The notes: generated by a model not told the origin, from the sequence alone. A stretch of DNA of 64,000 nucleotides from Gammaproteobacteria bacterium (GCA_965222615.1 CBDCUI010000009.1:64001-128000); one strand, 5' to 3'. Positions 7,373-23,429 are shown, counted from the first letter of the stretch. Numbers and translations: made by a program.

Positions 7373-7393
7373 TGATATATATAAGAGTATTGA

Positions 7394-7421
7394 TTGACTC
7401 ATTACAGCCGATCAATAGAAT
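7394..7421 (+). promoter_or_regulatory. sigma-70 promoter of the host tRNA-Gly locus
   Basis: TTGACT-N16-TAGAAT, 10 nt upstream of the tRNA 5' fragment. Confidence 0.7.
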
Positions 7422-7428
7422 ATAAGTC

Positions 7429-7469
7429 TATGCGGGAATAGCTCAGCTGGTAGAGCGCAACCTTGCCAA
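7429..7469 (+). repeat. attL: TAT plus the 5' 38 nt of tRNA-Gly(GCC) (truncated tRNA)
   Basis: 41-bp direct repeat of 23065-23105 with one mismatch (C7447 vs T23083); ends just after the GCC anticodon loop. Confidence 0.95.
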
Positions 7470-7693
7470 TATTAAACTTCCTTTTTTAGCTCTAATATAA
7501 ACAAGAGCTTACATCACACAGTTACAGCCTTACCTTCAAAAATTGTGTATTAATCGACGCAAATAAACGGTAGTTTGGCACAAAATGTCACAGTTTTTGG
7601 AGCGCAACACTTTTTGTGTCGAGCGCTTTTGATGGCCAATATATGTGACAGTTTCAGACACTATTATCAATCATTACAGGTTTCTAACTTTAG

Positions 7694-7749
7694 TTGCATT
7701 TTATATCCGTATTTGTATAAAATATGATTTATATCAATACCGATATAAA
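7694..7749 (+). promoter_or_regulatory. Promoter with tandem palindromic operators upstream of the HTH-STAND gene
   Basis: TTGCAT..TATAAA overlapped by TTTATATC-N6-TGTATAAA (7700-7721) and followed by TTTATATC-N6-GATATAAA (7728-7749). Confidence 0.6.
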
Positions 7750-7782
7750 TTAAACATTCCGCAATGAGTTAGCAATTCATAT

Positions 7783-10700
7783 ATGAGTGACAATTTAGAA
7801 GCTACCGAGTTATCAAACGACATTCGCGAAAGGGCAGAGCTTATTGTCACTTTGCAAGAATACCTGGTGGGACAGCCAGGAACGCAAGCTGATAAAGCCA
7901 AGCAACTTGGTATAACTCAACCGAGGCTAAATGCTTTACTTAAAAACAAAGTAGAAAAGTTTAGTTTGGATGCACTCGTAAATATCGCAGCGAAAGCTGG
8001 TGTTCGAGTAAATTTACAGTTGCAAAGGATTGCTAAACCACTTAAATCGCCACCTACAATTCTCAATACATTCCAAGTTGGCCCTTTCTTTTCTCCAATG
8101 CCCGATGAATTGGGTTATTTGGATTCGACTCAATCTTCTAAAGTATTTCTAAATCTTTTACGTTGCGATGTAACTAGTGCAGGTATTAGTCCGTCAAACA
8201 TCGTGTTTTCGCTTAACACTACTACAAAAGACGGAGGTATTGACGCAAAGGTAGAAGTTGAATGTGCATCAAGCTCATTTCTTGATAATGGTAATGTTCA
8301 TTTCCAAGTTAAAAGCGGATCAAGTTTCAAGCCGTGGTATGCAAGCTGTCTTAAAAGAGAATTGTTTGGAAAATCTAATGCTCGCCCATCAAAAAAAGCT
8401 TTAGGAGATGCGGTTAAACATTGCCTTGATAATGGACACACATATTGTTTGGTTACGTTTGGGCATGATTTGCTACCAAAGGAACATACTAAAACTATAA
8501 ATTACTTAATAGAATATTTTCAGGCATGCGGTTATCGAAATCCCAAAGTTAAAGTTCTTGGTCAAGGTCAACTTATAGGTGAGATAGAAAAATACCCATC
8601 ACTTTGTCTCGAATTAAAAGGTTTATCGGTTGATGGGGCGCAGCCAATAGAATACTGGAAAAACAATGCTCAAATGCAGCTCCCATTATTTAAGGGAGAG
8701 CCGCAAAATAAATTTATTGATGAGATTCAAGACTTGATACGTAGTAATTCTGTTCAGCATATCAGAGTTATAGGTGAGCCAGGGATTGGCAAAACACGAC
8801 TTATTCTTGAGTCCGTGTCGGATCAATTTATTGCACCCACAGTTGTTTACATTAGTTCCGGAGAAGAATTTCAAAAAAGTAAATTGTTTAAAGAAATACT
8901 TAGAGTAGATAGAAACTTCTCCGCTACGTTAGTAATAGATGATTGTGATTCTCGCGATAGGACATCTATTTGGTCAGCTCTAAAAGGTAATTCCCGAATT
9001 AAATTGATAACAATTGATCATGGTCCCGAAGACAGTGATGACAGCAGTATGAAAACGATTCATTGTCCGTTGCTACCAAATGAGCAAATTGAAGAAATAT
9101 TAGCTAGCTATTTAGACAAAAAATATGACTTGCGTAATTGGGCAGAAATGTGTGACGGATCTCCTAGAGTAGCTCATGCAGTAGGAGAAAATTTAGCTAA
9201 GAATTCAAGTGATGTTTTAAAAACACCAGCTGATGTTCCAATCTGGGAAAGATTTATCATTGGACACAAACCGATTAATAGCGTTGATGCAGAACAATAT
9301 CGCATAGTTTTGCGTCACCTAGCGTTGTTTCAAAAATTTGGATTTGAGAATCCAGTTGATGAAGAAGCGCGCCACATCTGTACTCTTGTCCAAAAAGTTG
9401 ATTCGTCTATTAGTTGGGGAAAGTTCCAGACTATTGTCTTGCACTATAAAAATAAACGAATACTTCAAGGAAATACTACGTTGTATTTTGTCCCAAAAGC
9501 ATTGCATATTCATCTCTGGGTCGATTATTGGGAACAACATGGAAGAGGTTTTAAATTTCAAGACATATATGAGGAATTGCCCAGCGGCTTAAGGAACTGG
9601 TTTTTGCAGTTATTTATTTATGCTCACGATGTTGAGCCCGCAAAAAAAGTTGTAAAGAATATTTTATCCGAAGATGGGCCATTTTCAGATGTTAGCTTCT
9701 TTAAATCTAAGACTGGGTTGAAATTTATAAGTGTGTTAGCAGAGGCTGATCCTGCTTCTACATTAAGATTGATAGAAAGAACACTAGAAGAGTGGAGTCA
9801 TGAGGACATATATAAGCTTAATGAGGGGCGCCAGTACCTTGTATGGGCTTTGGAAAAAATATCTGTATGGAAAAATTTATTTGCTCGTAGTGTAGATGTA
9901 TTAACAAGGTTAGCACTCGCAGAGAATTCAAATTACGGCAATAATTCAACAGGGATATTACTAAGTCTATTTCAAATTGGACGAGGTTGGGCGCCAACGC
10001 AAGCACCCCCTGAAATGAGATTTCCCATTTTGCAAGAGTTTGTGAGGAGTGAAGATTCAGCAAAAAGAGAGTTAGGATTCAAAATGTGTGAAACATGGCT
10101 GGACACACATGGGGGAATGAGAACTATAGGTTCTGAGTATCAAGGTATACGGCCAACAATTAAATTCTGGGCGCCGAAAGTATGGGGGGAAATATTTGAT
10201 TGTTGGCGAGACGTACTGAAATTTCTATTTGATGAGATGAAAGGATTTGATATTGAAAACAAAAACAAAGCTGCGAATGTTTTAGTGCATGCTGCATTTG
10301 ACTTAATTGACACCAATGCGGTTACTGATCAAATCCATGACATATTATTTGAACTTGCAAATGATGAAGATATAAGCAAAAAGGGACTCACTAATTTTGT
10401 AATTAGGATGCTTAATAGACGAGATAGAAAACTAGAGTCTAGCCTATTAGAAAAAATAAATGAGCTAGACAATATGCTAACTGGTACCTCATTGATAGAT
10501 AGAATTACAAGATTTGTATTAAATACAAATTGGGAAGAGCACTATGGGATAAATGATGGAGATAATAGTGAATCAGATAGGCGAGTAAATGAGTTAGCAA
10601 AAGAATACATGGCTGATACTGAGCATTTCGATAAATATGCATTAAGCCTATTAAAAGCATCTGGACTTAAATTGCCACAATTCGCATATGAATGTGGAAA

Positions 10701-11838
10701 GCAAGCTACTGAGAATTTATTAGATGAAAAATTATTAAATTTGATCAAGGATAATGTCGAATACATAAATAGTGAATATTTAGGAGGTTATCTTTCTGGT
10801 ATTCGAGAGCTTGATGAGGATAGATGGGAATCATTAATTGTGTTATTGCTTAGAGATGTAAATACAAGAGACTTGGCAATAAATTGTATAACGAGATCCG
10901 GACTAAACGATTCCCTTATACATCTAATGCTAAATATGTATAAGAAAGAGGAGATAAGCTCTAGCGCATTTTTTAATTTCTATTATAAGCGTGAGAATTC
11001 AGGTGTTTCATTTGATGCGGTTAGAGAAATTATACATACCTTACTCCAATATCCCGACGACACATCAGTTAGTGTTGCAATTGAAATTTTATACGTTAAA
11101 TACATAGAAGATGAAATTAATCCTTTACCAGAAGAATTGGTACTTAACGCTCTCATTGCGCCCCCGATTAAAATTTATACCCAAGAAGCAATGTATGACT
11201 ATCATTGGGAAAAAATTGCAAATGTTTATTTGAAAGAGTATCCACATAGAAGCATGGAATTGCTAGGTTCAATTTTCGATAAAATTCTTAGTGGCGCCCA
11301 ATATTATTCTTACTCATTTTTACGAAAAACAGCAGCTAAGATTATTAAAAGCGAACCTGATTTATCGTGGAAATTAGTATCAAGGATGCTTGAAGATAAC
11401 GACGCAGCTTCTTTTCATTTAATGTATTGGTTTGATAGTGACAACATTGAGGAAGGTGAAGAGAATAAAAGCTTAGCAAGTTATTTCCCTATAGATAAAG
11501 TTATGAAATGGGTTGGTGAAGACGAAAAAATTAGGAAGAATAAAATAATTGAAATATTGCCTAAAACTTTAGAATTACAGAATGGCGGTTATCTAACTCG
11601 TGAATTTATTGATAAATTTTGTAACGATAAAAAAACCACTGGAAGGCTCATAGTGCATTTTTGGGCCGGTTCATGGAGTGGAAATACTAGTGCATACTTA
11701 TCAGGCAAGAGAGATATAGCTAGAAAATGGTTCAGTGAAATTGAATCAGCTAGGATACAAAAATGGTTAAGCTATTACATGGACTGGTTAAGTGAACGAA
11801 TTGAGAGAGAGTTGATTGAAGAAGAAAGAGAATTTTGA
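7783..11838 (+). CDS. XRE-HTH + PD-(D/E)xK-like nuclease + STAND-like P-loop NTPase + helical repeats (candidate Avs-like defence protein)
   Basis: N-terminal TQADKAKQLGITQPRLNALL..FSLDALV; DGGIDA...FQVKS; Walker A GEPGIGKT; Walker B LVIDDCD; CDGSPRVA; long alpha-helical C-terminus. Confidence 0.7.
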   Translation: MSDNLEATELSNDIRERAELIVTLQEYLVGQPGTQADKAKQLGITQPRLNALLKNKVEKFSLDALVNIAAKAGVRVNLQLQRIAKPLKSPPTILNTFQVGPFFSPMPDELGYLDSTQSSKVFLNLLRCDVTSAGISPSNIVFSLNTTTKDGGIDAKVEVECASSSFLDNGNVHFQVKSGSSFKPWYASCLKRELFGKSNARPSKKALGDAVKHCLDNGHTYCLVTFGHDLLPKEHTKTINYLIEYFQACGYRNPKVKVLGQGQLIGEIEKYPSLCLELKGLSVDGAQPIEYWKNNAQMQLPLFKGEPQNKFIDEIQDLIRSNSVQHIRVIGEPGIGKTRLILESVSDQFIAPTVVYISSGEEFQKSKLFKEILRVDRNFSATLVIDDCDSRDRTSIWSALKGNSRIKLITIDHGPEDSDDSSMKTIHCPLLPNEQIEEILASYLDKKYDLRNWAEMCDGSPRVAHAVGENLAKNSSDVLKTPADVPIWERFIIGHKPINSVDAEQYRIVLRHLALFQKFGFENPVDEEARHICTLVQKVDSSISWGKFQTIVLHYKNKRILQGNTTLYFVPKALHIHLWVDYWEQHGRGFKFQDIYEELPSGLRNWFLQLFIYAHDVEPAKKVVKNILSEDGPFSDVSFFKSKTGLKFISVLAEADPASTLRLIERTLEEWSHEDIYKLNEGRQYLVWALEKISVWKNLFARSVDVLTRLALAENSNYGNNSTGILLSLFQIGRGWAPTQAPPEMRFPILQEFVRSEDSAKRELGFKMCETWLDTHGGMRTIGSEYQGIRPTIKFWAPKVWGEIFDCWRDVLKFLFDEMKGFDIENKNKAANVLVHAAFDLIDTNAVTDQIHDILFELANDEDISKKGLTNFVIRMLNRRDRKLESSLLEKINELDNMLTGTSLIDRITRFVLNTNWEEHYGINDGDNSESDRRVNELAKEYMADTEHFDKYALSLLKASGLKLPQFAYECGKQATENLLDEKLLNLIKDNVEYINSEYLGGYLSGIRELDEDRWESLIVLLLRDVNTRDLAINCITRSGLNDSLIHLMLNMYKKEEISSSAFFNFYYKRENSGVSFDAVREIIHTLLQYPDDTSVSVAIEILYVKYIEDEINPLPEELVLNALIAPPIKIYTQEAMYDYHWEKIANVYLKEYPHRSMELLGSIFDKILSGAQYYSYSFLRKTAAKIIKSEPDLSWKLVSRMLEDNDAASFHLMYWFDSDNIEEGEENKSLASYFPIDKVMKWVGEDEKIRKNKIIEILPKTLELQNGGYLTREFIDKFCNDKKTTGRLIVHFWAGSWSGNTSAYLSGKRDIARKWFSEIESARIQKWLSYYMDWLSERIERELIEEEREF

Positions 11839-11984
11839 ATAAAATTAGTCTTTTTTTGTATTCAATATTTTATCGTGTCGATAGCCCACGTATAAAATCA
11901 CAAAGGTTGGCGAATATCTACCGTTCATTTTGTTAGTACGTATAGGCATTCACAGCTCCAATTGTTAGGGCGTTCATAAAAATA

Positions 11985-12043
11985 TTACAAATTTATGAGT
12001 GGCCATGATCATTTAAATTGTAGCCGGATACCCCCCTATGGGG
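11985..12043 (+). other. Putative packaging / terminal-repeat-like site resembling T7-type genome ends
   Basis: TTACAAATTTATGAGTG...CCCCCCTATGGGG resembles (from memory) the T7 right-end junction AAAAATCTGAGTG...CCCCCATAGGGGG. Confidence 0.45.
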
Positions 12044-12359
12044 TCGGCAAACCACCATATAGGACCACCAAAACACCTGCCTACTTGGTTTAACACCAAG
12101 ACCTCAAGTCTTCTAGCCCGAAGGCCTAGCACCTGCAAAGTCAATGTTTATGCGGGCTTAGGTCATCCTTAGCATTGTCTAGGTGTGTCAATGTTGACTT
12201 GAACTGTGACATAGGGGTGACTTGGAGAGGTTGAGGAGCTGGCTTAGGTGGTCTCAGCGCGTCCATTTGAGTGCAGGGGAGCAGGCTTCAATACGCACAT
12301 CCTAATCACTAACAATCATTCCAGTTAAATACCAACAGTAAGGAGTAACCATTCACAGC

Positions 12360-12668
12360 ATGAAAGTAGAAGCATTTAGACAACCTGACCTAGGTCATTC
12401 AGTTGAGATGCTAGACATGATCAAGCAGATGTTTAGCGAAGGCATACCGCAATCTCGGATAGCAGAGCGTCTTAATAAGAAAGGCTATAGGGGCGCTCTT
12501 GGTGGTAAATGGAATTCCAGTAGTGTCGGTAGATTGCTTAGGCAGTTGAAGCTATTGCCTACACACAGTAGTTATCTTGAAGTGACCAAACAGAATGCTG
12601 AGCTGAAGGCGAGGGTTATAGAGTTAGAGGATACGTTAGAACATATAATGAAGGAGCATTACAGTTAA
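12360..12668 (+). CDS. Small DNA-binding protein: serine-recombinase 'Recombinase'-domain-like HTH plus coiled coil
   Basis: SRIAERLNKKGYRGALGGKWNSSSVGRLL pattern; AAGGAG RBS; C-terminal heptads. Confidence 0.6.
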   Translation: MKVEAFRQPDLGHSVEMLDMIKQMFSEGIPQSRIAERLNKKGYRGALGGKWNSSSVGRLLRQLKLLPTHSSYLEVTKQNAELKARVIELEDTLEHIMKEHYS

Positions 12669-12766
12669 TTAATCTATTTTTTCAAGTAGTTACAAGTGAA
12701 ACATAAAGTAAAAATAATGGCTATATACTACGCTCAGTCATGAGGTTATATAACGCTGTTAAAGGG

Positions 12767-13283
12767 GACCCCTACTCTCAGAGAACTACAAACAAACTTT
12801 CGAGTTTAAGACCTCGACAAACAAAACTTTCCCCTATCCAATCGTCGTGTGAAACATGTTTCACGCTCTGACCTACGGGGTCGTGGGTTTTAGCCCGAGT
12901 GTTGTAACTCAACTGATAGATTCAATGTGACAGTTTTTACTGTTGTTAAAGGATTTAAGAATGGCTTAGGTAAGCGAGTGAAAATTGACTTAAGTCGGAA
13001 ACTTGAGTTTTAGGACCCTCACTTATAGACCTATGGAACCGTCGTAACCGTTCGTCAATGTTTAGAACGCCTATTCTAAGACAACTAGAACCACCACTTA
13101 TAGACTAAACAACCAAACAAACAAATCGAGTTTCTGATCTCTCAAAAAACTTTCACCTATCCAATCGAAATCAGTATATGGGGTTTTCAAAATACCTAAC
13201 ATTTTCAGTGAAGTAGTAAAAGACCCCTACTTACAGAGAAATTCATAGTTTTCTGAATCTAATATCAGTTACCTATCCAACCG
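12767..13283 (+). repeat. Four bipartite repeat modules (16-bp box A plus 12-bp box B); phage-RNAP-promoter-like
   Basis: Box A GACCCCTACTCTCAGA (12767), GACCCTCACTTATAGA (13014), AACCACCACTTATAGA (13089), GACCCCTACTTACAGA (13222); box B CCTATSSAAYCG at 12833, 13030, 13156, 13272. Confidence 0.8.
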
Positions 13284-13367
13284 TCATCACAGCTAAGGGT
13301 AGGGCTTAAAAATTTCCTCAATACTGGCTCGCAATGCCAGTTATTCATATCAACTTAAAGACATACC

Positions 13368-13625
13368 ATGAACAAACAACACCAAATCTACCGCATCAAT
13401 CTCGATGCCTTAAGCCGTGATCAACTTGAATATGCAAAGCAAAAAGTAAATGAAGTCACCGGAGCACGCTTCAGTTACTCCGAGCTTGTCCGCTGTGGTA
13501 TCGATCTAATGAGCCGTGAGCTGGAGCGTCAATTGAATAACTCAACAGGGTTAGCAAACAGATTAATAAATAGATTCGGTAAGTACCGATGGGCTAGGTC
13601 CGCTACTCAACGCAAAAGGAAGTAA
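13368..13625 (+). CDS. Putative ribbon-helix-helix-like DNA-binding protein
   Basis: Beta strand YRINL followed by a helix and SYSELVRCGI. Confidence 0.4.
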   Translation: MNKQHQIYRINLDALSRDQLEYAKQKVNEVTGARFSYSELVRCGIDLMSRELERQLNNSTGLANRLINRFGKYRWARSATQRKRK

Positions 13626-13628
13626 CAA

Positions 13629-13964
13629 ATGGAAACAGATATAGATATTAAAGATGTAAGTCTAATGGACGTGTCTACATGGCATCACGATGTAGACGAT
13701 ACGGAAGCCCTTACACGGAAGCATATCCCAAACCTAGACATTGCAAAGTGGCTGTTACAGATCAGGGCCGATGCTCCGAATAAAGCTCCAGTAGTAATTA
13801 AAGGCGAAGAACAAGAGCCCACACCACATATTGATGTTACTCGAAGTAATCAACTGCTGAAGATAATTGCTTGCAACTTATTACAACGATTCTGTGTGCT
13901 TACATTTAATTCAAACATCGAGAAGGTCATAGATGAATATGAACGTCGTACCGTTATCTACTGA
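13629..13964 (+). CDS. Hypothetical protein
   Basis: AAGGAAG RBS; tightly packed operon. Confidence 0.55.
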   Translation: METDIDIKDVSLMDVSTWHHDVDDTEALTRKHIPNLDIAKWLLQIRADAPNKAPVVIKGEEQEPTPHIDVTRSNQLLKIIACNLLQRFCVLTFNSNIEKVIDEYERRTVIY

Positions 13965-14220
13965 TCTTACATTACCAAGTGGTCCCGCAAGTTATGAAGA
14001 TGTATGCACAATACATCGGCAAGTTACCTCTATTCTGTCTGATGACTTAAACAAGATAGAAGAGGGCACTTATGATGGTGATGAGAAAGCGAAAGCAGAG
14101 ATCATCAAGGTTGCTATTAAGTTCTTAAAGGACAATAAGATCTTAGTTGATGAGGATAGCTCACCGAGAAAGTATGCAACTCAACTAGAAAGTTTAGAGT
14201 TGCCGACGTTTAGAGACTAG
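13933..14220 (+). CDS. Autographivirus-like terminase small subunit (DNA maturase A-like)
   Basis: AS.E....IH..V...L and AIKFLKDN.I...LPTF pattern recalled from TerS of T7-supergroup phages. Confidence 0.55.
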   Translation: MNMNVVPLSTDLTLPSGPASYEDVCTIHRQVTSILSDDLNKIEEGTYDGDEKAKAEIIKVAIKFLKDNKILVDEDSSPRKYATQLESLELPTFRD

Positions 14221-14256
14221 ATAAAAGCTTAAGGAAATAAATTAAAGGGATACAAA

Positions 14257-16176
14257 ATGGAACAATTAATCACAATCGACTCGAATGAGTTTGTCGAAAG
14301 GATGCAAGAACATTGGGAGACTACATTAGGCAATGTAAGCAGTGATGCATTACGCCTTGTATGGAAGCAACTATCTTCAACATTCAATGGTTATATTGGT
14401 GGACATGCAGATAAAGAATGGTATGTATTGCAACCCCCCACTGGATCAGGCAAAACTCAAGGCACTATTGTTTATGCATCGATGCTGTCTGAACTGGAAA
14501 TGACAGATCACCCTGGAATGTTAATTGTTACACGTCGGATATTCGATGCAGATTTAATAGCAGATCAGATAAATGAACTTTCAGGTCGAGAGGTAGCCGT
14601 TAGCTTTCATAGTGATAAGCATAAAGAGCTATCAATTCACGAGCTGTCCAAATGGCCTGTATTAGTCATTACCCATAGAGCCTATGAATTAGCACTGGAT
14701 CAAATCTATAAAGATCAAAGCAATAAAGATACATGGGATTACTTCAATGAGTGGATACCTAAGTTTGATTCAAATGGCAGAAAGTTAATTGTTATTGATG
14801 AGTCACTAGACATTGTTGAGCATAATCAAGTCACAGCTTCAGAGCTTAACCACACCATAGGTTGTCTTGACACAAAGCTATTAATTAAATATCCAAGTGA
14901 AATCGAAGCAATTAAGGTTGCAAGAGACCATCTCCTTAAAATAGAAGCAATGAACTTTGCAAGCACTACGACCACCATTGTCAAAAGCGTGCTCGATGAT
15001 ATTACTAAGGCACCTAATTTCTCAGAACTAATAAAAGACCTCAAGCAAGTGCGCTTCGATTTTCAAGTTCATAAGAATGACACCAATGAGAATAACAAAA
15101 TGAGGTCATTACATGAGAAGAGATTGAATGCACTGCAACGTATCTATAACTCATGGATGTACTATGCGAGGCTAGAGAATAAAGAAACATTAAACACAGC
15201 AAGATTGCTTGTACCAAGTAATGTTAGAGGCGCGGTTGTATTAGATGCAACAGCGAAGTCTAACTTGATCTATACAGTATTCGATAAAGCAAAGGTACTC
15301 ACACCACCGGAAGGTTCACGAAACTATCAGAATGTGAATGCACATTTCTTAAAGGGCTTCAACGGTGGCAAGGTATCGATGCAAAAGAATGCTAAGAAGC
15401 TTGCTAAGCAATTAATGGCGGACTTAAACACACGACTAGCGGGTCGTAATGTTCTTATCATTACTCATAAAAGTGTTAGACCAAGCCTTGAGCTATATGA
15501 AGGTAACACTAGTTTCAAAATGAACATTGCTCATTGGTTTAACGCCGCGGGTAGTAATGAATGGAAAGACTGTGATGCTGTAGTGTTATGGGGATTACCA
15601 TTTCTACCTGATTATGTGGCGACTAATACGTTCATGGCATGTCAAGGTGTACAAGAAGATGAGTGGCTGACAGATGTAACTAAGAGAGAGTTCAAAGGAA
15701 TAAAAGACATCAAGCAAGCACTTAAGGTTGGAGCTAGCGTAGTAGAGATCGTCCAAGGTCTGAATAGGATCGCCTCACGCAAAGTTATAGACACTGAAGG
15801 TAACTGTCCTGAAGTCGATTTCTATATTCCATTACCCAATAACACAATTGGAGAAGCAATCTATAAGGGGATTGTTGAGGAGATGCCTAGGATGACCTTA
15901 GGTGAACCTTGGAAACTAGACACCGATGCTAAGCCAGTTAAGAAAGGTAACGGTGAAATAGCTCTAGTGTCTTATCTCACTAATATGATGAGAGGGAAGG
16001 TTAGTGCTAGTCAGGTTAAGAGCGAGATAGGAATATCTCCCGCAACATTTAAAAGACTAGTAGCTAAGTTAAAAGATACAACTAGTTCCTTATATCAATC
16101 ACTAATAGATATAGGAGTTAAGTATCAAGTTAGTGGTAAGGGACAAAGACAAGTCGCTCATTTTGTTAAGTCTTAA
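14257..16176 (+). CDS. SF2 helicase-like replication protein with C-terminal HTH
   Basis: PTGSGKT (I), LIVT (Ia), VITH (Ib), IVIDES (II), LDATA (III), QGLNR (VI); SASQVKSEIGISPATFKR HTH. Confidence 0.75.
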   Translation: MEQLITIDSNEFVERMQEHWETTLGNVSSDALRLVWKQLSSTFNGYIGGHADKEWYVLQPPTGSGKTQGTIVYASMLSELEMTDHPGMLIVTRRIFDADLIADQINELSGREVAVSFHSDKHKELSIHELSKWPVLVITHRAYELALDQIYKDQSNKDTWDYFNEWIPKFDSNGRKLIVIDESLDIVEHNQVTASELNHTIGCLDTKLLIKYPSEIEAIKVARDHLLKIEAMNFASTTTTIVKSVLDDITKAPNFSELIKDLKQVRFDFQVHKNDTNENNKMRSLHEKRLNALQRIYNSWMYYARLENKETLNTARLLVPSNVRGAVVLDATAKSNLIYTVFDKAKVLTPPEGSRNYQNVNAHFLKGFNGGKVSMQKNAKKLAKQLMADLNTRLAGRNVLIITHKSVRPSLELYEGNTSFKMNIAHWFNAAGSNEWKDCDAVVLWGLPFLPDYVATNTFMACQGVQEDEWLTDVTKREFKGIKDIKQALKVGASVVEIVQGLNRIASRKVIDTEGNCPEVDFYIPLPNNTIGEAIYKGIVEEMPRMTLGEPWKLDTDAKPVKKGNGEIALVSYLTNMMRGKVSASQVKSEIGISPATFKRLVAKLKDTTSSLYQSLIDIGVKYQVSGKGQRQVAHFVKS

Positions 16177-16179
16177 AGT

Positions 16180-16228
16180 TATGAGGCTCACTTCCCTTTA
16201 ATAAACCTATAGGGATTCGATCCTCATA
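16180..16228. other. Imperfect inverted repeat directly after the helicase gene (candidate origin or terminator)
   Basis: TATGAGG..TCCCT..AATAAACC..AGGGA..CCTCATA. Confidence 0.45.
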
Positions 16229-16822
16229 AATATGAACGGTCAGTTATTAAAACTATCTGATACTTCGTAACCAACCGATCATAGACATCACTAGGTTTTA
16301 GGGGTCGTTATCATCCCCGTTATTTCCTCCCTGGTGGTGTCTATCCACCTAGGTCCAGCTAAGGTCATCCTTAGGTCTCTCCATACATCTTCCATACCCT
16401 ATGGATGGATCTTATTGGTCCTATAACTATCTAGCTTGCCTTATGGGCTAGAGAATGGAATAGCCGGTATAGGTCTAAACTTCGCCTATGCTGGCTAGTT
16501 CCTAGCTTATAATGACCGCTAACGACCCAAAGCGGACATTCAAATCATGACAAACTAGATAGGCTGGATCTTATTCCGCTTGAACTGCCGATTTCTCACA
16601 TTTAAACATCGCTATCTATCTAATCCTGCTGTATGGTGAATCTAAGATTAGATATTCCTATCCCGATTTTCTTCCAGAGTTTCATTTCTTTGCCAGTTGT
16701 CGGCAATCATCTCTAATTACTGATTCCTTTGACACAGTGTCATTGGAGCACTAACACATGTGCAAATAGATTGAATGGGTATGCGCACAACAAGGCTCGA
16801 TCATCGAGCAAGGATATAAACA

Positions 16823-17089
16823 ATGAAACTATATGTAGGTAATTTACCTTGGAGCGTAACTGATGTGGATTTAAAAGAACTTTTTAGTGAGGTTGGCGAA
16901 GTAACAAGCGCCACCATTATCACTGATAGAGATTCTGGTCGATCCCGTGGATTCGGTTTCGTAGAAATGGCGAAAGAGGCTGGCCAACAAGCGATTAAGA
17001 AATTCAGCGAGCACGTAATTGATAACAGAACGCTGCGTGTCAATGAAGCAAATGAAAAACAACCCCGTCAAGCTGGCGGCCATTCTTAA
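16823..17089 (+). CDS. RRM-domain RNA-binding protein
   Basis: RNP2 LYVGNL, RNP1 RGFGFVEM and LRVNEA. Confidence 0.95.
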   Translation: MKLYVGNLPWSVTDVDLKELFSEVGEVTSATIITDRDSGRSRGFGFVEMAKEAGQQAIKKFSEHVIDNRTLRVNEANEKQPRQAGGHS

Positions 17090-17169
17090 AAGGTAGTTGG
17101 GCTAATGATCTTCGGGCGACATAACAATGCCGCTCGAGATCCTTTGACTACACAAAAGGAGCTACTTCT

Positions 17170-17313
17170 ATGATCGAAGAAGAAGAAAAGAAGTTGATGG
17201 ATCAATACGGGGTCATTTCTCAGCAAAAAACGGTGTATCACTATAATGGGTACAACTATGACAATCTTGAAGATGCGATTCGGTATGCCAAGATTGACAC
17301 TCAGCGAAAGTGA
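17170..17313 (+). CDS. Small hypothetical protein (47 aa), not in the ORF track
   Basis: AAAGGAG RBS; MIEEEEKKLMDQYGVISQQKTVYHYNGYNYDNLEDAIRYAKIDTQRK. Confidence 0.65.
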   Translation: MIEEEEKKLMDQYGVISQQKTVYHYNGYNYDNLEDAIRYAKIDTQRK

Positions 17314-17352
17314 ATTTGGCCCGTTCCCACAAAATTCTATGAGGAAGCCAAC

Positions 17353-17745
17353 GTGAATACTATTAAAGATATCAAGATAAAAGGCTTAGACCCGAATCGA
17401 AGGCCCAGTCTAAAGAATAAAAACTACGTTGATATAATTTTCGAGCTGACTCAAAAAGCACCCAAAGACTGGTGCGCTGACTTCAATTTATTATTTTCAA
17501 AAGATAAGCACAACGCAAAGATAAATCCTGATGAGGGACGATATGTTGAGACATGGGTGAGAAATATTAACGACATTCCAAAAGAACTTGAGCTGATTAA
17601 ACAACTCATCGTAATCTGTAATAACAACTATATTGAACAAAAGCATCAAGAAGAACTAGCTTGGCAAAAATCTGAAAACAGCAAATCCAATAGCCGCAGC
17701 GATGAATTAGAAGGTATCCTGGCAAGCCTAAATTTCAATTCATAG
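17353..17745 (+). CDS. Hypothetical protein
   Basis: GAGGAAG RBS before GTG; 130 aa. Confidence 0.65.
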   Translation: MNTIKDIKIKGLDPNRRPSLKNKNYVDIIFELTQKAPKDWCADFNLLFSKDKHNAKINPDEGRYVETWVRNINDIPKELELIKQLIVICNNNYIEQKHQEELAWQKSENSKSNSRSDELEGILASLNFNS

Positions 17746-17776
17746 CTCTTGTCTGAAATTGGCCGAAAGGAATCAT

Positions 17777-18076
17777 ATGAATAAGGACTGCAAAGTCGTA
17801 CTTATTTCGAATTCTGGGTATAAAAAAGAACACAACGATCTATTGCAAGAGCTAATAGAAAATGAAATTGAACTTTTCTGTGCCGTGGGTATTGAGTGCC
17901 AGGAGTGGGAAGAAGCAATGGACTTGTTGTGTGCTGAGTTAGATGCAAATGACATTAAACCAAACGCTTTTTGCAACACGACATCTCATCCTAATGAAAG
18001 TGTTGAGGATGTGATTAAATTTGCCGAAAGTTGGAGCCAGAAAGGGGCAACAGAAGTAAAAATAATCGAGATTTAA
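17777..18076 (+). CDS. Hypothetical protein (cassette-like gene)
   Basis: ATG at 17777 uses AAAGGA from within the degenerate repeat as RBS; ends 12 nt before the next repeat. Confidence 0.7.
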   Translation: MNKDCKVVLISNSGYKKEHNDLLQELIENEIELFCAVGIECQEWEEAMDLLCAELDANDIKPNAFCNTTSHPNESVEDVIKFAESWSQKGATEVKIIEI

Positions 18077-18219
18077 CTAATGTAGTAGATGACCGCTATT
18101 GGCCGAAAGCGGACATAAACTAAGCCAGTAAGGCAGAAATTAGGTTGGATTCCATAAATAACATGTTCAAAATGACTGCTAACGACCCAAAGCGGACATA
18201 GGAAATAATAATATTTGAT

Positions 18220-18654
18220 ATGAAAAAGATACCAACTTTAAAAGCCGCGATGACTCCTTTCCCATATTCTGTACAGCTTGAAACGACGCTTACTGCTGTA
18301 AGGAATTTGATGCAAACGCACAATATTCATCATATTCCAGTTATGAATAGTGGGAAAATTGTAGGTGTAGTAACCGCAAGAGATGTTGAGGCAAGGCAAA
18401 AGATGATGGATAGCGATGATAATGAACCATCACTTGAGGTATTGCATGTTCCTATGTCTAAGGCTTATATCGTCGATATCAATGAACCGCTTGAAAATAT
18501 ATTGTTAACAATGGCTAGTAAACGAATTGGGGCTACTGTCGTAACTAAACATGGAAAATTAGTAGGAGTCTTTACATATATTGATGCTTGTCGTTATTTT
18601 AGTGAATACATAAAAGCAAAGTTTCCTAAAAATAATGATAATGATGCGGCATAA
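18220..18654 (+). CDS. CBS-domain pair protein
   Basis: MQTHNIHHIPVM..GKIVGVVTARD and GKLVGVFTYID. Confidence 0.9.
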   Translation: MKKIPTLKAAMTPFPYSVQLETTLTAVRNLMQTHNIHHIPVMNSGKIVGVVTARDVEARQKMMDSDDNEPSLEVLHVPMSKAYIVDINEPLENILLTMASKRIGATVVTKHGKLVGVFTYIDACRYFSEYIKAKFPKNNDNDAA

Positions 18655-18742
18655 GCATCAACTTTTGAATGACTGCTTTTGGCCGAAAGCGGACATAAAG
18701 AGCTAAGCCACATTAAAGCAACCTAGCTCTATCCCTGTAGCA

Positions 18743-19012
18743 CTAATAATTAAAAGACTCTGCTGTTAGTGTAACCTTTGTACCTTCTAACGCTTTCTTA
18801 AACGGTCCAAACTCTGGAGTGTCCCCAAAGATCGGAAAGCTACCGTCGCATCCAGTTAAGTAAATAAGTTGTTTGTCGTCTATGTCTCGGCCTTCACCCA
18901 CTATCAGTAATGCGCCGTCCTTGTCTGTATACATAGTACCTTCAACAAGATCTGCAAAACTTAATTCTTCTTCGCGATGTTCAGGTGTTTCCACTTCTAT
19001 ATCTACAATCAT
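18743..19012 (-). CDS. Hypothetical acidic protein
   Basis: GGAG RBS; 89 aa; only minus-strand gene of the element. Confidence 0.55.
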   Translation of the reverse strand: MIVDIEVETPEHREEELSFADLVEGTMYTDKDGALLIVGEGRDIDDKQLIYLTGCDGSFPIFGDTPEFGPFKKALEGTKVTLTAESFNY

Positions 19013-19266
19013 TATGTAGTTACTCCATGTAAATTAAATAAGTAACTACTTTAGTTACAAAGACACACCTAATCCAATCAATTCTCTTTCTAACTTGACT
19101 ACTCTAAACAGTTGAGAGTCGTCAACTACGGCGAGTAACTTACTGCTACAAATAACTAAAGCAGTGTTCGCTGCGTTTACAACATTCAATGACACTCAAC
19201 GATTGAGTACTGTCAAAAAATTCTACTTATAACCCACCCACTAACTCTGCAAAGGAGTACATAACT

Positions 19267-19506
19267 ATGAAATGGACAAAAGTAAATAAAGATACAGCAC
19301 ACAGATACGTAGTAGATGGAGGACTTCTTTCAGAAGGGGTTTCCACTCTCAGATCATTTAAGGATAAACTTCGCGCGACTAAGTTTGCAAAGGCTCTATC
19401 CAGAGCTATCGGTGCATGTAATTTATTAGATAAAGAGAAACTAGTTCTACAACGATTCGTTAAAGGTGACTCAAAAGCGACCTTTTCCGTAATTTACGCC
19501 TCTTAA
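19267..19506 (+). CDS. Hypothetical protein
   Basis: AAGGAG RBS. Confidence 0.55.
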   Translation: MKWTKVNKDTAHRYVVDGGLLSEGVSTLRSFKDKLRATKFAKALSRAIGACNLLDKEKLVLQRFVKGDSKATFSVIYAS

Positions 19507-19629
19507 TCCACTGATTTTGCTAAGGGTCAAATGTCTTATTTGAGCTATTTAAAACACCCCTAGCTCTACTATTAATTATTTAAACAAACGATCTGAGAGG
19601 CTCTCACGATCTATACCCATTCAATAATC

Positions 19630-19797
19630 ATGAATAACGAACCAATAACTACTCAAGACCCCGACATCAGGGTACTGCTAGAAAACATTCAAAGGCTGAG
19701 GTCATATGTCCCAGCCAAGGATAGTCTGTGGCAACGACTTAAAACTGCCAAGAAGAAAACTAGAAACAACAAACCTATAGGAAAACAAAACCAATGA
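19630..19797 (+). CDS. Small basic hypothetical protein (55 aa), not in the ORF track
   Basis: MNNEPITTQDPDIRVLL...; ATGA overlap with the next gene. Confidence 0.4.
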   Translation: MNNEPITTQDPDIRVLLENIQRLRSYVPAKDSLWQRLKTAKKKTRNNKPIGKQNQ

Positions 19798-20003
19798 AAT
19801 TAAATGTAGAAAAAGTTACTAACTACGTAAATGAAACCTACAAGTCACATGCTAATCAATCTGAACCCGTCATTTCAGATGTTGATCAAGAAGGTAACTA
19901 CACGGTTACTGTTGATCTACTGAAAGATGGTGAAGTAGTTAACACGACAGTTAGTAAGCACTCAGTGTCACCCGCTGAAGCAAGAGCGCACAACCTCTTT
20001 TAA
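19794..20003 (+). CDS. Hypothetical protein
   Basis: AGGA RBS; 69 aa. Confidence 0.55.
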   Translation: MKLNVEKVTNYVNETYKSHANQSEPVISDVDQEGNYTVTVDLLKDGEVVNTTVSKHSVSPAEARAHNLF

Positions 20004-20094
20004 TTGAGCATCAGCCACGCCCGTCGGAGCTAGTCGATTTTCGTTAAGTGGTTACGACGAATCCGACACCTAATTCAACCAACTAAATAAACAT

Positions 20095-20796
20095 ATGACA
20101 TCAAAACATATCCCTGCCGAAGCGGCAGTAAAGATCAATGAATGCAGACCATGCGCAGTAGATTGGTGCAGCGAGTACAGAGCAAATCTATATAAGTACT
20201 GTAAAAGACATGCTTACAGAGACGCTAGATACGGCGACACTAAGTTTACACCACCTGATAAAGCACAACTGTCTCAATATCGTGAATGGTCTTCTAAAGT
20301 ACTACAGGCAAATGCAAATGTACCTCATGTAATCGGTGCGCAACAAATGCTAAGGAAGATTGTTCAACATTGTTTAACTAATAAGAATGAACATGTTAGA
20401 GCGCATGCGAATCGCCTGAACAATTCATTCGATGCATTCAAGGCTTTGCATGATGTTTTTACTATTTGGCTGTGGAGTAATGATTGTTTACACCAAGCTA
20501 TCCAATTTCAAGCTAATGAAATTAAAGTACGCGACCGATTAATAGGAAGAAAATTCCTATCGGTGACACCCCTAAATAGTGAGCTGCATAAATGCAGTAA
20601 TCCAAGTGGGCGAGTCTGCCAAATCTACGGCGAATTAATAACACAAAACTTGCTAAGGATTTTTTTAGCCCTCACTCAAATCGTTGATGAGTCAAAAAAG
20701 ATGGAGCAAGAAGCCAAAGAAGAAAGTATCGAATTGAACTATCCGCAAGAGACCTTAGAACTTGCAAACAAAATGTTAAACCAACTAAGCAACTAA
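20095..20796 (+). CDS. Hypothetical protein with N-terminal Cys/His cluster (possible Zn finger)
   Basis: CRPCAVDWC...YCKRH. Confidence 0.6.
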   Translation: MTSKHIPAEAAVKINECRPCAVDWCSEYRANLYKYCKRHAYRDARYGDTKFTPPDKAQLSQYREWSSKVLQANANVPHVIGAQQMLRKIVQHCLTNKNEHVRAHANRLNNSFDAFKALHDVFTIWLWSNDCLHQAIQFQANEIKVRDRLIGRKFLSVTPLNSELHKCSNPSGRVCQIYGELITQNLLRIFLALTQIVDESKKMEQEAKEESIELNYPQETLELANKMLNQLSN

Positions 20797-20813
20797 CCAA
20801 AAAGGAAGTAAAA

Positions 20814-21683
20814 ATGAATGAAGAAAATAAAAGTGTAACTATTCAACACACAGATAATACTAGTAGAGGGTCAATATCCACTGAAGAAGTAACGCATGAT
20901 CAGTTACCGATGGGCAGATATCCACGACATCGCGTGTCTACTGAAGACTTCAAGCCTTATGAGGACAACCGATACGATGGCGGTCCGATAGTTAACGATT
21001 ACAGTAAATACAATACGAACCCTGCAAGTAAGACGATTCGCACCAATGAATCTGAAGTATACGGTGGTGAGGGCGAATTAAGCTTTCAAGCTATTACGGG
21101 CATGACTCGTAACTTTAGAAATGCTGAGCCGCATGACCTAGTTACCTTACCTGGTGGAATGGAACTAAAAGTTGAGCAAGCACTTGCACACGGAATGATT
21201 GTTAAGACAGATGAGGGCTATTCTTTACCTGGACAACCAGCACAACAACAACCTCAACCAGCTCAAAAGGTGAATGAGCAACAGTTTATTGAATTGAGTC
21301 CTGACGAAGATCACTCGCTTGCAAATGAGACCATGCAAGAACAAACCGAAGCTATGAGAGAGCATCTCGGTGATGATAAATATGAGCGTTATGCTGAACT
21401 AGTTGCTACTCACGATAATCTCGATGATGTAATTGACGCGCTCGGTGATGAGCTTCAGGGCAATTACGATTACGCAGAGACCGTTACAAATGCGCTAATT
21501 AAGAATGTGGTCAATGAAGGACTTACTTATGCTCAGGCAAGGGGAGCCGACCGAGAAGGCTTCAAGGCATATCTATTCAACCATCCGAACCAAGTTGCAG
21601 TTAAGAAAGCAATTACTAAGCTATTCAAAAGTCACAATCCTGCGCACTTGAACGAGTTCATTAATAGCTACGTAGCTAAGTAA
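20814..21683 (+). CDS. Hypothetical acidic protein, possibly capsid scaffold-like
   Basis: AAGGAAG RBS; P/Q-rich linker; acidic helical C-terminal half. Confidence 0.5.
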   Translation: MNEENKSVTIQHTDNTSRGSISTEEVTHDQLPMGRYPRHRVSTEDFKPYEDNRYDGGPIVNDYSKYNTNPASKTIRTNESEVYGGEGELSFQAITGMTRNFRNAEPHDLVTLPGGMELKVEQALAHGMIVKTDEGYSLPGQPAQQQPQPAQKVNEQQFIELSPDEDHSLANETMQEQTEAMREHLGDDKYERYAELVATHDNLDDVIDALGDELQGNYDYAETVTNALIKNVVNEGLTYAQARGADREGFKAYLFNHPNQVAVKKAITKLFKSHNPAHLNEFINSYVAK

Positions 21684-21696
21684 AGATCCATCAGTT

Positions 21697-21725
21697 TGCC
21701 GGAGCTGTAAATCCGGCATTTCTTT
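21697..21725 (+). terminator. Intrinsic terminator-like hairpin upstream of xis-int
   Basis: TGCCGGA-GCTGTAAA-TCCGGCA followed by TTTCTTT. Confidence 0.6.
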
Positions 21726-21756
21726 ACATTCATTTCATTAACTAAAGGAGTAAACA

Positions 21757-22086
21757 ATTAGTGATGAAACTTTATCCCTTAGCGAAGCTGCACATCTATT
21801 AAAGATGTCACCTGAAGCGTTACGGCGCAAAGCTAAGGCCTGTGATATTCCTGGCGCAAAACCTGCCAAGGAATGGGTATTTATTAAGGAAGATTTACTC
21901 GCTTACATCCGCTCATGTTATGCTAAACCTGTAACTGTGTGGAGTGAGCGATCAACTGAAAAGGAGATCAATCAATGCCATACAAACGAAAAGACAATGG
22001 AGTCTATTACTCCAATTTTGAATCCAGAAGTGGAGAGCGGGTACGAAAGAGCCTTAGGACGCGTGATAGAAATGAGGCCATCATAA
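21757..22086 (+). CDS. Excisionase-like HTH_17 protein, apparent ATT start
   Basis: ETLSLSEAAHLLKMSPEALRRKAK..IPGAKPAKEWVF; helix 1 lies upstream of the ATG at 21805; AAGGAG-N6-ATT; in-frame TAA at 21751. Confidence 0.7.
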   Translation: MSDETLSLSEAAHLLKMSPEALRRKAKACDIPGAKPAKEWVFIKEDLLAYIRSCYAKPVTVWSERSTEKEINQCHTNEKTMESITPILNPEVESGYERALGRVIEMRPS

Positions 22087-23036
22087 AAGAGGCTGAATTG
22101 ATTGCGGCAGATAAGGGTGAAGTCGTACAGATTAACAATAACCGGAAAACTTGGCGTGATGCTGTTTACCGATACTGGAATGAAGTGGAAGGTAAAGCTA
22201 GCGCTGATTGTATTCAAATACATTTAAGGTTCTTGGATACATTCTTAGGAGATAAGTATCTCGATGAGATCAATGATGAACTTATCGAAGATATTATTGC
22301 TGCTAAAAGTAGTGAGAAAAACCGTAAAGGTGAGAAGCTATCCGGTGCTACAGTTAATCGATTAACGGCGACGTTAAAGTCGGTGTTCAATAGTGCAAAG
22401 AAATACAGATGGATCGACAACGTTCCGTATGTAAGAAAGTTAGAAGAGTCAGAGGGTAGGAGTAGGTATCTCACACCATCTGAATCTAAACGATTACTTG
22501 ATCATTGTGCTGAACACTTAAAACCGATAGTGACATTTGCTTTGCATACAGGCTTGAGAAAGCAGAATGTATTAAGGCTTAGATGGGAGAATGTAGACCT
22601 CGATCAAGGTAAGTGCTGGGTGCTTAGCTCAGAGCATAAAAACCGAAAGGCGAGGGGTGTTACTCTCAATAGTGTTGCTTTAGGGGTGCTACGAGAATTA
22701 GCTATATATAAGGTGTCGCCCTATGTATTTAACTATAGGGGGCGGCCTATTGGAGATGTGAAGACGGGACTTAAGCGAGCCTGTGAACGGGCTGGCTTAA
22801 AGGACATATCCTTCCACACATTTCGACATACTTATGCTTCTTTACTAGCACAGCAAAACGTTTCGACCCTAGTTTTAAAGGAGCTAGGTGGATGGAAGTC
22901 AATGCAAATGGCTCAAAGATACGCTCATCTTAATGATGACGGACTGCGAGAATACCAAGAATTGCTTGTAGGTTTGTCACAGTACTGTGACAAAAATCCA
23001 CCGCCCAAGTTAAGGCTAGTAAGTGGAAAATCGTAA
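21975..23036 (+). CDS. int: Tyrosine recombinase / phage integrase
   Basis: TGLRK (R), HKN (K), HTFRH, LGGW and RYAH (Y); adjacent to attR. Confidence 0.95.
   Translation: MPYKRKDNGVYYSNFESRSGERVRKSLRTRDRNEAIIKEAELIAADKGEVVQINNNRKTWRDAVYRYWNEVEGKASADCIQIHLRFLDTFLGDKYLDEINDELIEDIIAAKSSEKNRKGEKLSGATVNRLTATLKSVFNSAKKYRWIDNVPYVRKLEESEGRSRYLTPSESKRLLDHCAEHLKPIVTFALHTGLRKQNVLRLRWENVDLDQGKCWVLSSEHKNRKARGVTLNSVALGVLRELAIYKVSPYVFNYRGRPIGDVKTGLKRACERAGLKDISFHTFRHTYASLLAQQNVSTLVLKELGGWKSMQMAQRYAHLNDDGLREYQELLVGLSQYCDKNPPPKLRLVSGKS
22973..22994. promoter_or_regulatory. Perfect 22-bp palindrome (candidate integrase arm-site pair)
   Basis: TTTGTCACAGTACTGTGACAAA; the TGTCACA/TGTGACA half-site also occurs near attL (7586, 7644). 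Confidence 0.6.
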
Positions 23037-23067
23037 GTGATTGAGTTAAATTAGGAAATTCGGTTAT

Positions 23068-23143
23068 GCGGGAATAGCTCAGTTGGTAGAGCGCAACCTT
23101 GCCAAGGTTGAGGTCGCGAGTTCGAACCTCGTTTCCCGCTCCA
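23068..23143 (+). tRNA. tRNA-Gly (GCC), intact, includes attR
   Basis: 76-nt cloverleaf GCGGGAA...TTGCCAA...GTTCGAA...TTCCCGCTCCA. Confidence 0.98.
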
Positions 23144-23429
23144 TAACTATTATCTAAGTTTGGTGGTCTACAACTACTTTCTAAAGTTACCCCTTAATCA
23201 CTCAGCAAGCTTCCTATTTCAAGACTAAAAAGAAAAATTCTCTAAGGGGGAGGGCATAAATGAGCTGCCCACACACACAAAAGAGCAAAGTACTATTAGA
23301 TAAAATACTTAATAAATCAGCTGAAGTATGAATCTAGAGTTTAAAGTAGTAAAATACATAGTTGTGTACCGTATTTAATTGCTTTGCTTTATATATGGTT
23401 TGTTTTTATTATTTATTATATGTGTAAAT

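Follow-up and report, generated by a model that had tools for sequence, protein, structure and literature searches.

An island in tRNA-Gly with a T7 gp18-like small terminase gene: a possible satellite of T7-like phages in a gammaproteobacterium

Here we have analysed a 64,000-nt stretch of a Gammaproteobacteria bacterium genome (GCA_965222615.1, CBDCUI010000009.1:64001-128000; "the window", from whose first letter all positions are counted) and find in it an integrated, non-viral island of ~15.7 kb, at 7429-23105, which carries a gene resembling that of the small terminase subunit (TerS) of phage T7, gp18. Our preferred reading, to which we give a probability of roughly 0.45, is that the island is a satellite similar to phage-inducible chromosomal islands (PICIs) or to tycheposons, and that, through its gp18-family TerS, it may take over the terminase of a helper phage of the T7-like type. 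Judged by sequence comparison, it belongs to a widespread family of integrative elements defined by a shared helicase, and within that family to a rare subset that also carries a TerS of the T7 gp18 family; one relative encodes a T7-type large terminase subunit (TerL). The features on which the argument turns are these:

7429-7469, plus strand: attL, the displaced 5' half of tRNA-Gly(GCC) at the native position of the gene, ~60 nt 3' of pgsA
12360-12668, plus strand: 102-aa protein, the C-terminal "Recombinase"/helix-turn-helix (HTH) part of a small serine recombinase (PF07508, 2e-6)
13368-13625, plus strand: 85-aa conserved small protein, with homologues at the equal position in two related loci, L005 (E 8e-5) and L147
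13629-13964, plus strand: 111-aa open reading frame (ORF) without family match
13933-14220, plus strand: 95-aa TerS-like ORF (PF11123, phrog_891)
14257-16176, plus strand: 639-aa DEAD-like helicase of superfamily 2 (SF2), its own Pfam match weak, many of its homologues with PF00270
20095-20796, plus strand: 233-aa protein with a Cys/His-rich N-terminus, the helicase's conserved partner, without family match
21805-22086, plus strand: 93-aa Xis/AlpA-like HTH ORF, a weak match (HTH_17, phrog_1840)
21975-23036, plus strand: tyrosine integrase (PF00589, 1.2e-30; phrog_1, 1.8e-65)
23065-23105, plus strand: attR, inside the intact tRNA-Gly(GCC) at 23068-23143

The direct repeats that bound the island (7429-7469 and 23065-23105) are identical at 40 of 41 nt and consist of the first 38 bases of tRNA-Gly(GCC) plus three bases upstream; the intact tRNA-Gly(GCC) is the sole tRNA gene reported by ARAGORN in the window, and an Rfam scan of the element returned nothing beyond tRNA. 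Both flanks are host genes, with uvrC and then pgsA (6818-7372) on the left and urease accessory genes to the right of the intact tRNA. The empty site is seen in all four relatives examined, of which one belongs to the host's genus and three to its family; in each, an intact tRNA-Gly(GCC) lies within ~70 nt 3' of pgsA. The repeated tRNA 5' half and these empty sites together identify 7470-23105 as an insertion: the crossover point is two bases beyond the anticodon, and the functional tRNA owes its 5' half to the element. The att-bounded element put forward in a preliminary description of this DNA, made from the sequence alone, is thus borne out. The element or parts of it are also present in the assembled contigs of four public runs, X1-X4, of which X1 and X2 come from one sample, X3 comes from a second sample with the same organism label, and X4, with another organism label and from another study, holds a few short pieces at 100% identity. 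Run X1 includes a diverged, higher-depth contig that joins 7344 to 23064; no attP joint was found among the joints listed for the contigs of the four runs.

Nearly all genes of the island run from left to right. Scans of 18 element ORFs against Pfam, PHROGs and NCBIfam, and of 17 against PADLOC, recognised no capsid, portal, tail, TerL or RNA polymerase (RNAP) family, in agreement, for capsid, portal, tail and RNAP, with the preliminary description, and no TerL was found in the genome either; nine ORFs, including the 233-aa protein and a 289-aa protein, match no family at all, so that a novel structural protein could still be hidden among them. The same description had named an integrase, an excisionase and an SF2 helicase. 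The integrase stands by the scores listed above and the helicase by its 229 homologues, whereas the Xis-like ORF stays below threshold (HTH_17 at 18.5 bits with a cut-off of 27, E 0.0025; phrog_1840, excisionase, E 0.004).

The link to T7 begins with the 95-aa ORF at 13933-14220. It scores 33.1 bits against PF11123 (DNA_Packaging_2, the T7 gp18 family), above the gathering cut-off of 27.5, and reaches 1.2e-8 against phrog_891, "terminase small subunit"; T7 gp18 (GenBank V01146), similar in size at 89 aa, matches the same Pfam model with 54.8 bits. PF11123 is rare in chromosomes: three of 400 genomes of the class have a match at E <= 0.001, and a match above the cut-off occurs here only. The family around the ORF is tiny, as an exhaustive phmmer search of 1.84 billion representatives listed five proteins at E <= 0.001, three of which are true small relatives (75, 52 and 40% identity). 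With four ORFs from related loci included, the family has eight members; PF11123 is the best Pfam match of all eight and exceeds its cut-off in four. The ORF differs from T7 gp18 in showing no detectable pairwise or profile-to-sequence similarity to it. A single-protein scan of IMG/VR with the ORF found nothing, the family alignment found nothing among metagenome contigs, and a PDB sequence search with the family gave designed helical repeats or insignificant matches only. The predicted model has three helices (pLDDT 84), and its best rows in BFVD have E values of 0.3-0.5, the third of them being a podophage TerS (E 0.5). On the profile matches we accept the ORF as a distant homologue of the gp18 family, and in this respect the T7-type TerS of the preliminary description has held up.

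The helicase immediately downstream places the island within a much larger group. Among 8000 candidates scored, 229 homologues were found at E <= 0.001 (best non-self identity 46%), and in some of them a Prim-Pol is fused to the helicase. For comparison we drew on 38 loci of species genomes and on 80 of the 110 metagenome stretches that were identified. Pfam annotation of 105 ORFs in seven loci reveals a recurrent order of small serine recombinase, small ORF or ORFs, helicase (with or without Prim-Pol) and ~230-aa protein, with tyrosine integrases and defence genes close by, among them type I restriction-modification, TIR, HNH, Dcm/Vsr, Schlafen and Fic genes. Weak homologues of the 233-aa protein lie directly 3' of the helicase in L004, L006 and L007, and N-terminal matches to it occur in L005 and L010; since the partner follows the helicase directly in relatives, the 16.2-20.0 kb block of the island is likely cargo inserted between the two. 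Among the host's 61 near relatives, one other genome has a helicase homologue, at 28% identity.

A search for syntenic elements, which the preliminary description had proposed, led to L005, from a betaproteobacterial metagenome-assembled genome, with the order small serine recombinase, three 37-nt boxes, 85-aa homologue, gp18-like ORF, helicase and 234-aa protein. Further gp18-like ORFs are present in L082 and L010, found like that of L005 by a local iterative profile hidden Markov model search over all ORFs, and in L045, found with Pfam. Their position is fixed, upstream of the helicase, in L005, L045 and L082, and ~2.7 kb upstream in L010.

Could the island simply be a decayed T7-like prophage? 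A gp18-family gene is present, and some T7-like phages carry integrases. Against such an origin, PF00940 (RNAP) has no match in the genome, although control genomes are silent too; no DNA polymerase, capsid, portal, tail or TerL is matched; and the helicase has no match in 50,697 phage records, yet occurs at 38 loci of bacterial genomes and in 110 stretches of metagenome, so that the backbone is that of an element and not of a decayed phage. A single-protein scan of IMG/VR with the helicase likewise found none. We regard a decayed prophage as very unlikely.

Independently of the TerS-like ORF, the element family appears tied to T7-type packaging by the sequence of L147, a 6.5-kb IMG/VR contig from the viral fraction. 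Its order is integrase, TerL, tandem-repeat arrays, intact serine recombinase, 85-aa homologue and helicase. The TerL (590 aa; PF22530, 8.7e-37) is 46% identical to T7 gp19 over 542 residues and matches 2681 phage records, the best of them, at 57.6%, an Autographiviridae roseophage in which the homologue sits near the right genome end. Between TerL and the serine recombinase, at 3552-3751 of the contig, lie two arrays of 12-15-nt tandem repeats (unit TCTAGGTCCTCC), comparable to the arrays next to T7's terminal repeat and located at the place that corresponds to region A of our island (11950-12330, below). L147 may represent a satellite that brings its own TerL, or else a piece of an integrating T7-like phage of an unusual kind; the island described here, unlike T7, has no TerL, RNAP or terminal repeat.

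Taken as a PICI-like or tycheposon-like satellite, the island would have the following life cycle. A T7-like podovirus infects the cell and would thereby act as inducing helper; the island would be excised by Int and Xis and would replicate from its own origin, in region C (16177-16545, below), with its own helicase. As the island encodes no primase, it must depend on the host or the helper for priming. Its gp18-like TerS would next bring the helper's TerL to a putative pac site on the island, so that island DNA would enter helper capsids, and a PD-Lambda-4_A-like gene on the island may protect the host meanwhile.

Several findings weigh against such packaging. The island's 15.7 kb bears no simple ratio to the ~40 kb of a T7-type genome. 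Aligned by hhalign with T7 gp18 alone, the TerS-like family profile gave no alignment (probability 0.1); a Foldseek search of BFVD with the TerS-like model, a check against phage TerS that the preliminary description had suggested, returned nothing at E <= 0.001; and tblastn of the ORF against the 50,697 phage records gave no match. No helper phage was found in those records with either the TerS-like ORF or the segment 11950-13360. Only one helicase relative, L147, occurs in 2.9 million viral contigs, and when IMG/VR was scanned again with the helicase piece of L147, no contig other than L147 came up. The repeated boxes upstream of the operon (region B, below) fail the T7 promoter matrix, and no viral contig has more than one copy of them. 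The serine recombinase fragment lacks its catalytic domain, where relatives have an intact Resolvase+Recombinase gene in that place, and this truncation could mean decay. Finally, a gp18-like gene is present in only four of 119 related loci and a TerL in one of 119; packaging genes are therefore accessory in the helicase family.

These last counts bear on a different account, in which the element is a replicative integrative defence and cargo island that is not packaged by phage. It would spread by vesicles, transformation or mobilisation, and the gp18-like protein would be either a decoy with an interference or defence function, poisoning the terminase of T7-like phages that infect the cell, or a relic. 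Indeed, 115 of the 119 related loci are without a TerS-like gene and keep the helicase, often with an integrase and defence genes, and a defence gene is found on our element as well. Evidence of virions was found neither in the IMG/VR scans with helicase and TerS nor in the assembled public-run contigs. Furthermore, the sections of the tycheposon study consulted here (10.1101/2020.12.28.424599) describe most tycheposons as being without packaging genes and propose vesicle transfer. What speaks for packaging instead is that the gp18-like ORF is intact and at a fixed place upstream of the helicase in three of four distant carriers, and that the full T7-type TerL and the T7-style repeats of L147 are hard to explain by interference alone. 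We place the unpackaged island on the unlikely side, as a serious contender nonetheless.

If the island is a satellite, its mode of induction is a separate question, and it centres on the non-coding DNA in front of the operon:

12700-13360, plus strand: region B, in which repeated boxes of two families, all in one orientation, precede the operon start at 13368
12767, 13015, 13066, 13090 and 13222, plus strand: boxes of family 1
12819-12850, 13142-13173 and 13258-13289, plus strand: boxes of family 2

The preliminary description had read tandem boxes upstream of the TerS and helicase operon as phage-promoter-like. The repetition stands: region B contains two direct 19-nt pairs with at most two mismatches, any such pair being seen in 0 of 500 dinucleotide shuffles, and the strong boxes are unique in the genome. 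A match to phage promoters found no support. Under a matrix built from 17 annotated T7 promoters, the five family-1 boxes rank 290th to 4905th of 127,956 positions, and the best match in the window, at 13162 in family 2, has 8.7 bits, far below real promoters. The segment 11950-13360 had no blastn match in the 50,697 phages, and the two box motifs were found in 1 and 20 IMG/VR contigs, with a single chance-level copy each and no candidate helper among them. A matrix made from the five boxes themselves is circular, with ~11 outside matches at the level of the weakest box, and was not used as evidence. Because promoter specificity varies among T7-like phages, failing T7's own matrix counts for little. 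Box 13015 shares a 9-mer with what we take to be the T3 promoter.

In L005, three 37-nt direct boxes lie at 8792-9226, between the serine recombinase and the gp18-like operon, in a position like that of region B; they differ from it in sequence, bar a short ACTCT.AG-like core noted by eye.

On the boldest reading of region B, the island would be the first recognised satellite of the Autographiviridae, wired directly to the single-subunit RNAP of its helper. At 12.7-13.3 kb, the boxes would act as mimic promoters, silent until the helper RNAP appears and then switching on the operon of ribbon-helix-helix-like protein, TerS and helicase and priming replication into concatemers, as at T7's own origins, and the gp18-like TerS would pass the gp19-type motor of the helper on to a junction-like site in the island. 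Were this true, the helicase family would represent a broad, unrecognised lineage of such satellites across Proteobacteria. We find the scheme as a whole improbable, and its central element, boxes acting as helper-RNAP promoters, doubtful.

It is an even bet that the boxes are instead iterons or operators bound by the element's own small DNA-binding proteins, for which the 102-aa HTH protein, the 85-aa protein or the TerS-like protein would be putative candidates. De-repression or AlpA-type activation would then control expression, which is the situation in ordinary PICIs; such a scheme touches the mechanism alone, and the island could still live as a satellite. The 85-aa protein may be a ribbon-helix-helix-like DNA binder, although it has no Pfam match and a PDB sequence search with it gave designed helical repeats or insignificant matches only. 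In favour of iterons or operators are the two distinct box families, all direct repeats and beside three small putative DNA binders; the three boxes of L005, with a different sequence in the same place; short iteron arrays near the helicase, in post-helicase DNA, of L005 and L007; and the ranks under the T7 matrix as well as the lack of a multi-copy match in IMG/VR. On the other side, every box is oriented as the operon is, and the window's best T7-matrix match falls within these 660 nt. Sigma-70-like promoter matches, moreover, are depleted in 7300-23300 (20, against 46 +/- 7 in shuffles), with one weak plus-strand site (12689, 9/12) in the 700 nt upstream of 13368. Terminator-like hairpins in the same interval number 20, about twice the expected 10.8 +/- 3. 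We retain the boxes as candidate promoters, iterons or regulator sites.

Two further non-coding regions flank this part of the island:

11950-12330, plus strand: region A, non-coding, with a GC content of 0.45-0.49 against 0.32-0.36 in the flanking DNA; the "T7-end-like" site of the preliminary description
16177-16545, plus strand: region C, hairpin-rich and non-coding, directly 3' of the helicase; candidate replication origin

The T7-end-like site near 12.0 kb found no support in alignment, as the left and right ends of T7 aligned with the window no better at region A, their best tiles lying elsewhere, and the region contains no tandem array; nor does it give a fold signal (z-score -0.6). The label stays an impression. 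Regions A and C share a 17-nt match only (E 0.011). A resolvase remnant was sought in region A, where nothing was found and the upstream frame is full of stops. At position 12006, the contig of run X2 has an extra GATC inside the palindrome TGATCA that is lacking in X1 and in the window; strains may differ here, or the sequencing of a GATC site may have produced an artefact.

Region C folds far more stably than its shuffles (z-score -6.9) and has the highest CTAG density in the genome. PICI origins adjoin rep, and by this analogy region C is probably the replication origin. Related loci show a similar pattern: in the 330 nt 3' of the helicase stop, z is -3 or lower in 22 of 65 loci, compared with 0 of 54 controls inside the gene, with L010 going as low as -9.9; these family scores (L003-L120) rest on 15 shuffles each and are rough. 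The hairpin-rich DNA after the helicase is thus, across the family, a candidate conserved origin or structured RNA.

How does the island compare with known satellites? In the sense used by SatelliteFinder, a PICI combines int, alpA and a primase or rep gene with the absence of virion and lysis genes in ~10-15 kb; int, the helicase and the size of the island agree with this, its AlpA-like ORF stays below threshold, it lacks a primase domain, and nine of its ORFs are unmatched. P4-like satellites are marked by psu, delta, sid, epsilon and the alpha primase-helicase, to none of which any of the 18 ORFs has a PHROG or Pfam match.

The preliminary description had seen no known class of satellite (P4, PICI, cf-PICI or PLE) into which the gene set would fit, and this proves too strong. 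In the parts considered here of Hackl et al. (10.1101/2020.12.28.424599), tycheposons are flanked by tRNA genes and carry a tyrosine recombinase, xis, a helicase/primase and a small serine recombinase, and a "PICI-like" subset carries terS or a capsid gene and was never seen with extra cargo. Our island matches this subset in its layout: integration into a tRNA gene, part of which is repeated at the opposite end of the island, tyrosine recombinase, xis (weak here), helicase module and small serine recombinase (a C-terminal fragment here), and, as in these proposed capsid hijackers, terS but no recognised virion genes. Unlike them, as far as the same parts describe them, it has a defence gene and a host-like gene block as cargo, and its host is not a cyanobacterium. 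The likeness is judged by gene layout, and tycheposon membership is partly defined by integrase clades.

Marine virion-borne elements (VEIMEs), some with small terminases, provide a second comparison (Eppley et al., PMC9618062). As portrayed in portions of that paper and of PMC10085698, Gram-negative PICIs and VEIMEs share with the island a size class of ~5-18 kb, defence cargo, int, an AlpA/Xis-like regulator and a replication gene with an adjacent (here candidate) origin, and they use terS to redirect helper packaging, where the island has a terS-like gene. Unlike theirs as portrayed there, its replication gene encodes an SF2 helicase that lacks a primase domain, its terS is of the T7 gp18 family (PF11123), and its int is the last gene of a nearly unidirectional set. 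The helpers given in those portions are temperate siphoviruses or unknown, and none is T7-like (PMC10085698, PMC9618062). The PICMI satellites of Vibrionaceae are marine, have virulent-phage helpers and a minimal gene set, and are packaged as concatemers, according to the text available from 10.1101/2023.07.18.549517; their gene set differs, and that text contains none of the terms terminase, helicase, T7-like, podovir- or Autographivir-. A literature search returned no title or abstract naming a satellite of T7-like phages.

The remaining genes of the island comprise its defence cargo, a block of small host-like genes and a group of ORFs before the integrase:

7783-11838, plus strand: 1351-aa HTH and ATPase protein, PD-Lambda-4_A-like defence cargo (PADLOC PDLC03991, 8.6e-40)
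16823-17089, plus strand: RRM protein, a small host-like gene in the cargo block 16513-18697
between the RRM and DUF7684 genes, plus strand: 47-aa ORF and 130-aa ORF of the cargo block
17759-18076, plus strand: DUF7684 protein, a small host-like gene of the cargo block
18220-18654, plus strand: CBS-pair protein, a small host-like gene of the cargo block
16513-16540, 18090-18117, 18173-18200 and 18670-18697: four copies of a 28-nt imperfect palindrome, like repetitive extragenic palindromes (REP), bounding the RRM-to-CBS genes
18743-19012 (minus strand), 19267-19506, 19630-19797 and 19794-20003: four small ORFs without family match
20814-21683, plus strand: 289-aa protein, scaffold candidate of the preliminary description, without family match

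The defence cargo is well founded, with the PDLC03991 match spanning residues 108-1349 and thus nearly the full length of the protein, which also matches HTH_37 (7.3e-13); no PD-Lambda-4 B component was found among the 17 ORFs scanned. The 289-aa protein has just two relatives in 5.8 billion clusters.

The "cassette" cargo proposed earlier stands as far as the palindromes are concerned, four copies of which are present, and lacks support with regard to integron attC identity. The 28-nt palindrome ends in AAAGCGGACAT and has no Rfam match; a stringent pattern for the whole palindrome has eight matches at seven genome positions, four of them in the element, and a looser search for the core adds a few more. 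Elsewhere the core abuts IS110-family transposase genes (C7:818127, C7:822165, C8:1839, C9:258052, C9:260123 and C9:266288), and three of these junction sites have one identical 43-mer. The only true integron integrase (IntI), at C9:397324-398262 (TIGR02249, 490 bits with a cut-off of 265), is ~310 kb away. Given the distant IntI, the 28-nt length of the palindromes and their coincidence elsewhere with IS110 insertion points, we read the palindromes as REP-like IS110 targets and do not regard them as demonstrated attC sites. By sequence, the element's four copies look like unoccupied REP-type targets for site-specific IS110 insertion. Part of the cargo (16629-17712, with the RRM, 47-aa and 130-aa ORFs) is 77% identical to C9:959422-960507, beside an IS110-family transposase. 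At the palindromes, the joints in the public runs amount to one higher-depth contig of repeat units only, which we do not read as cassette excision.

The main interest of the island lies in its link to T7-type packaging and in the large family, defined by the helicase, to which it belongs. T7-like podoviruses rank with the most common of all virulent phages. If the island is indeed their satellite, satellite biology would extend to phages that use linear concatemers, defined ends and RNAP-dependent steps, and the spread of PD-Lambda-4 and similar defence genes among hosts without temperate helpers would be explained. With the helicase as a marker, many more islands of this kind could be found in genomes and metagenomes.

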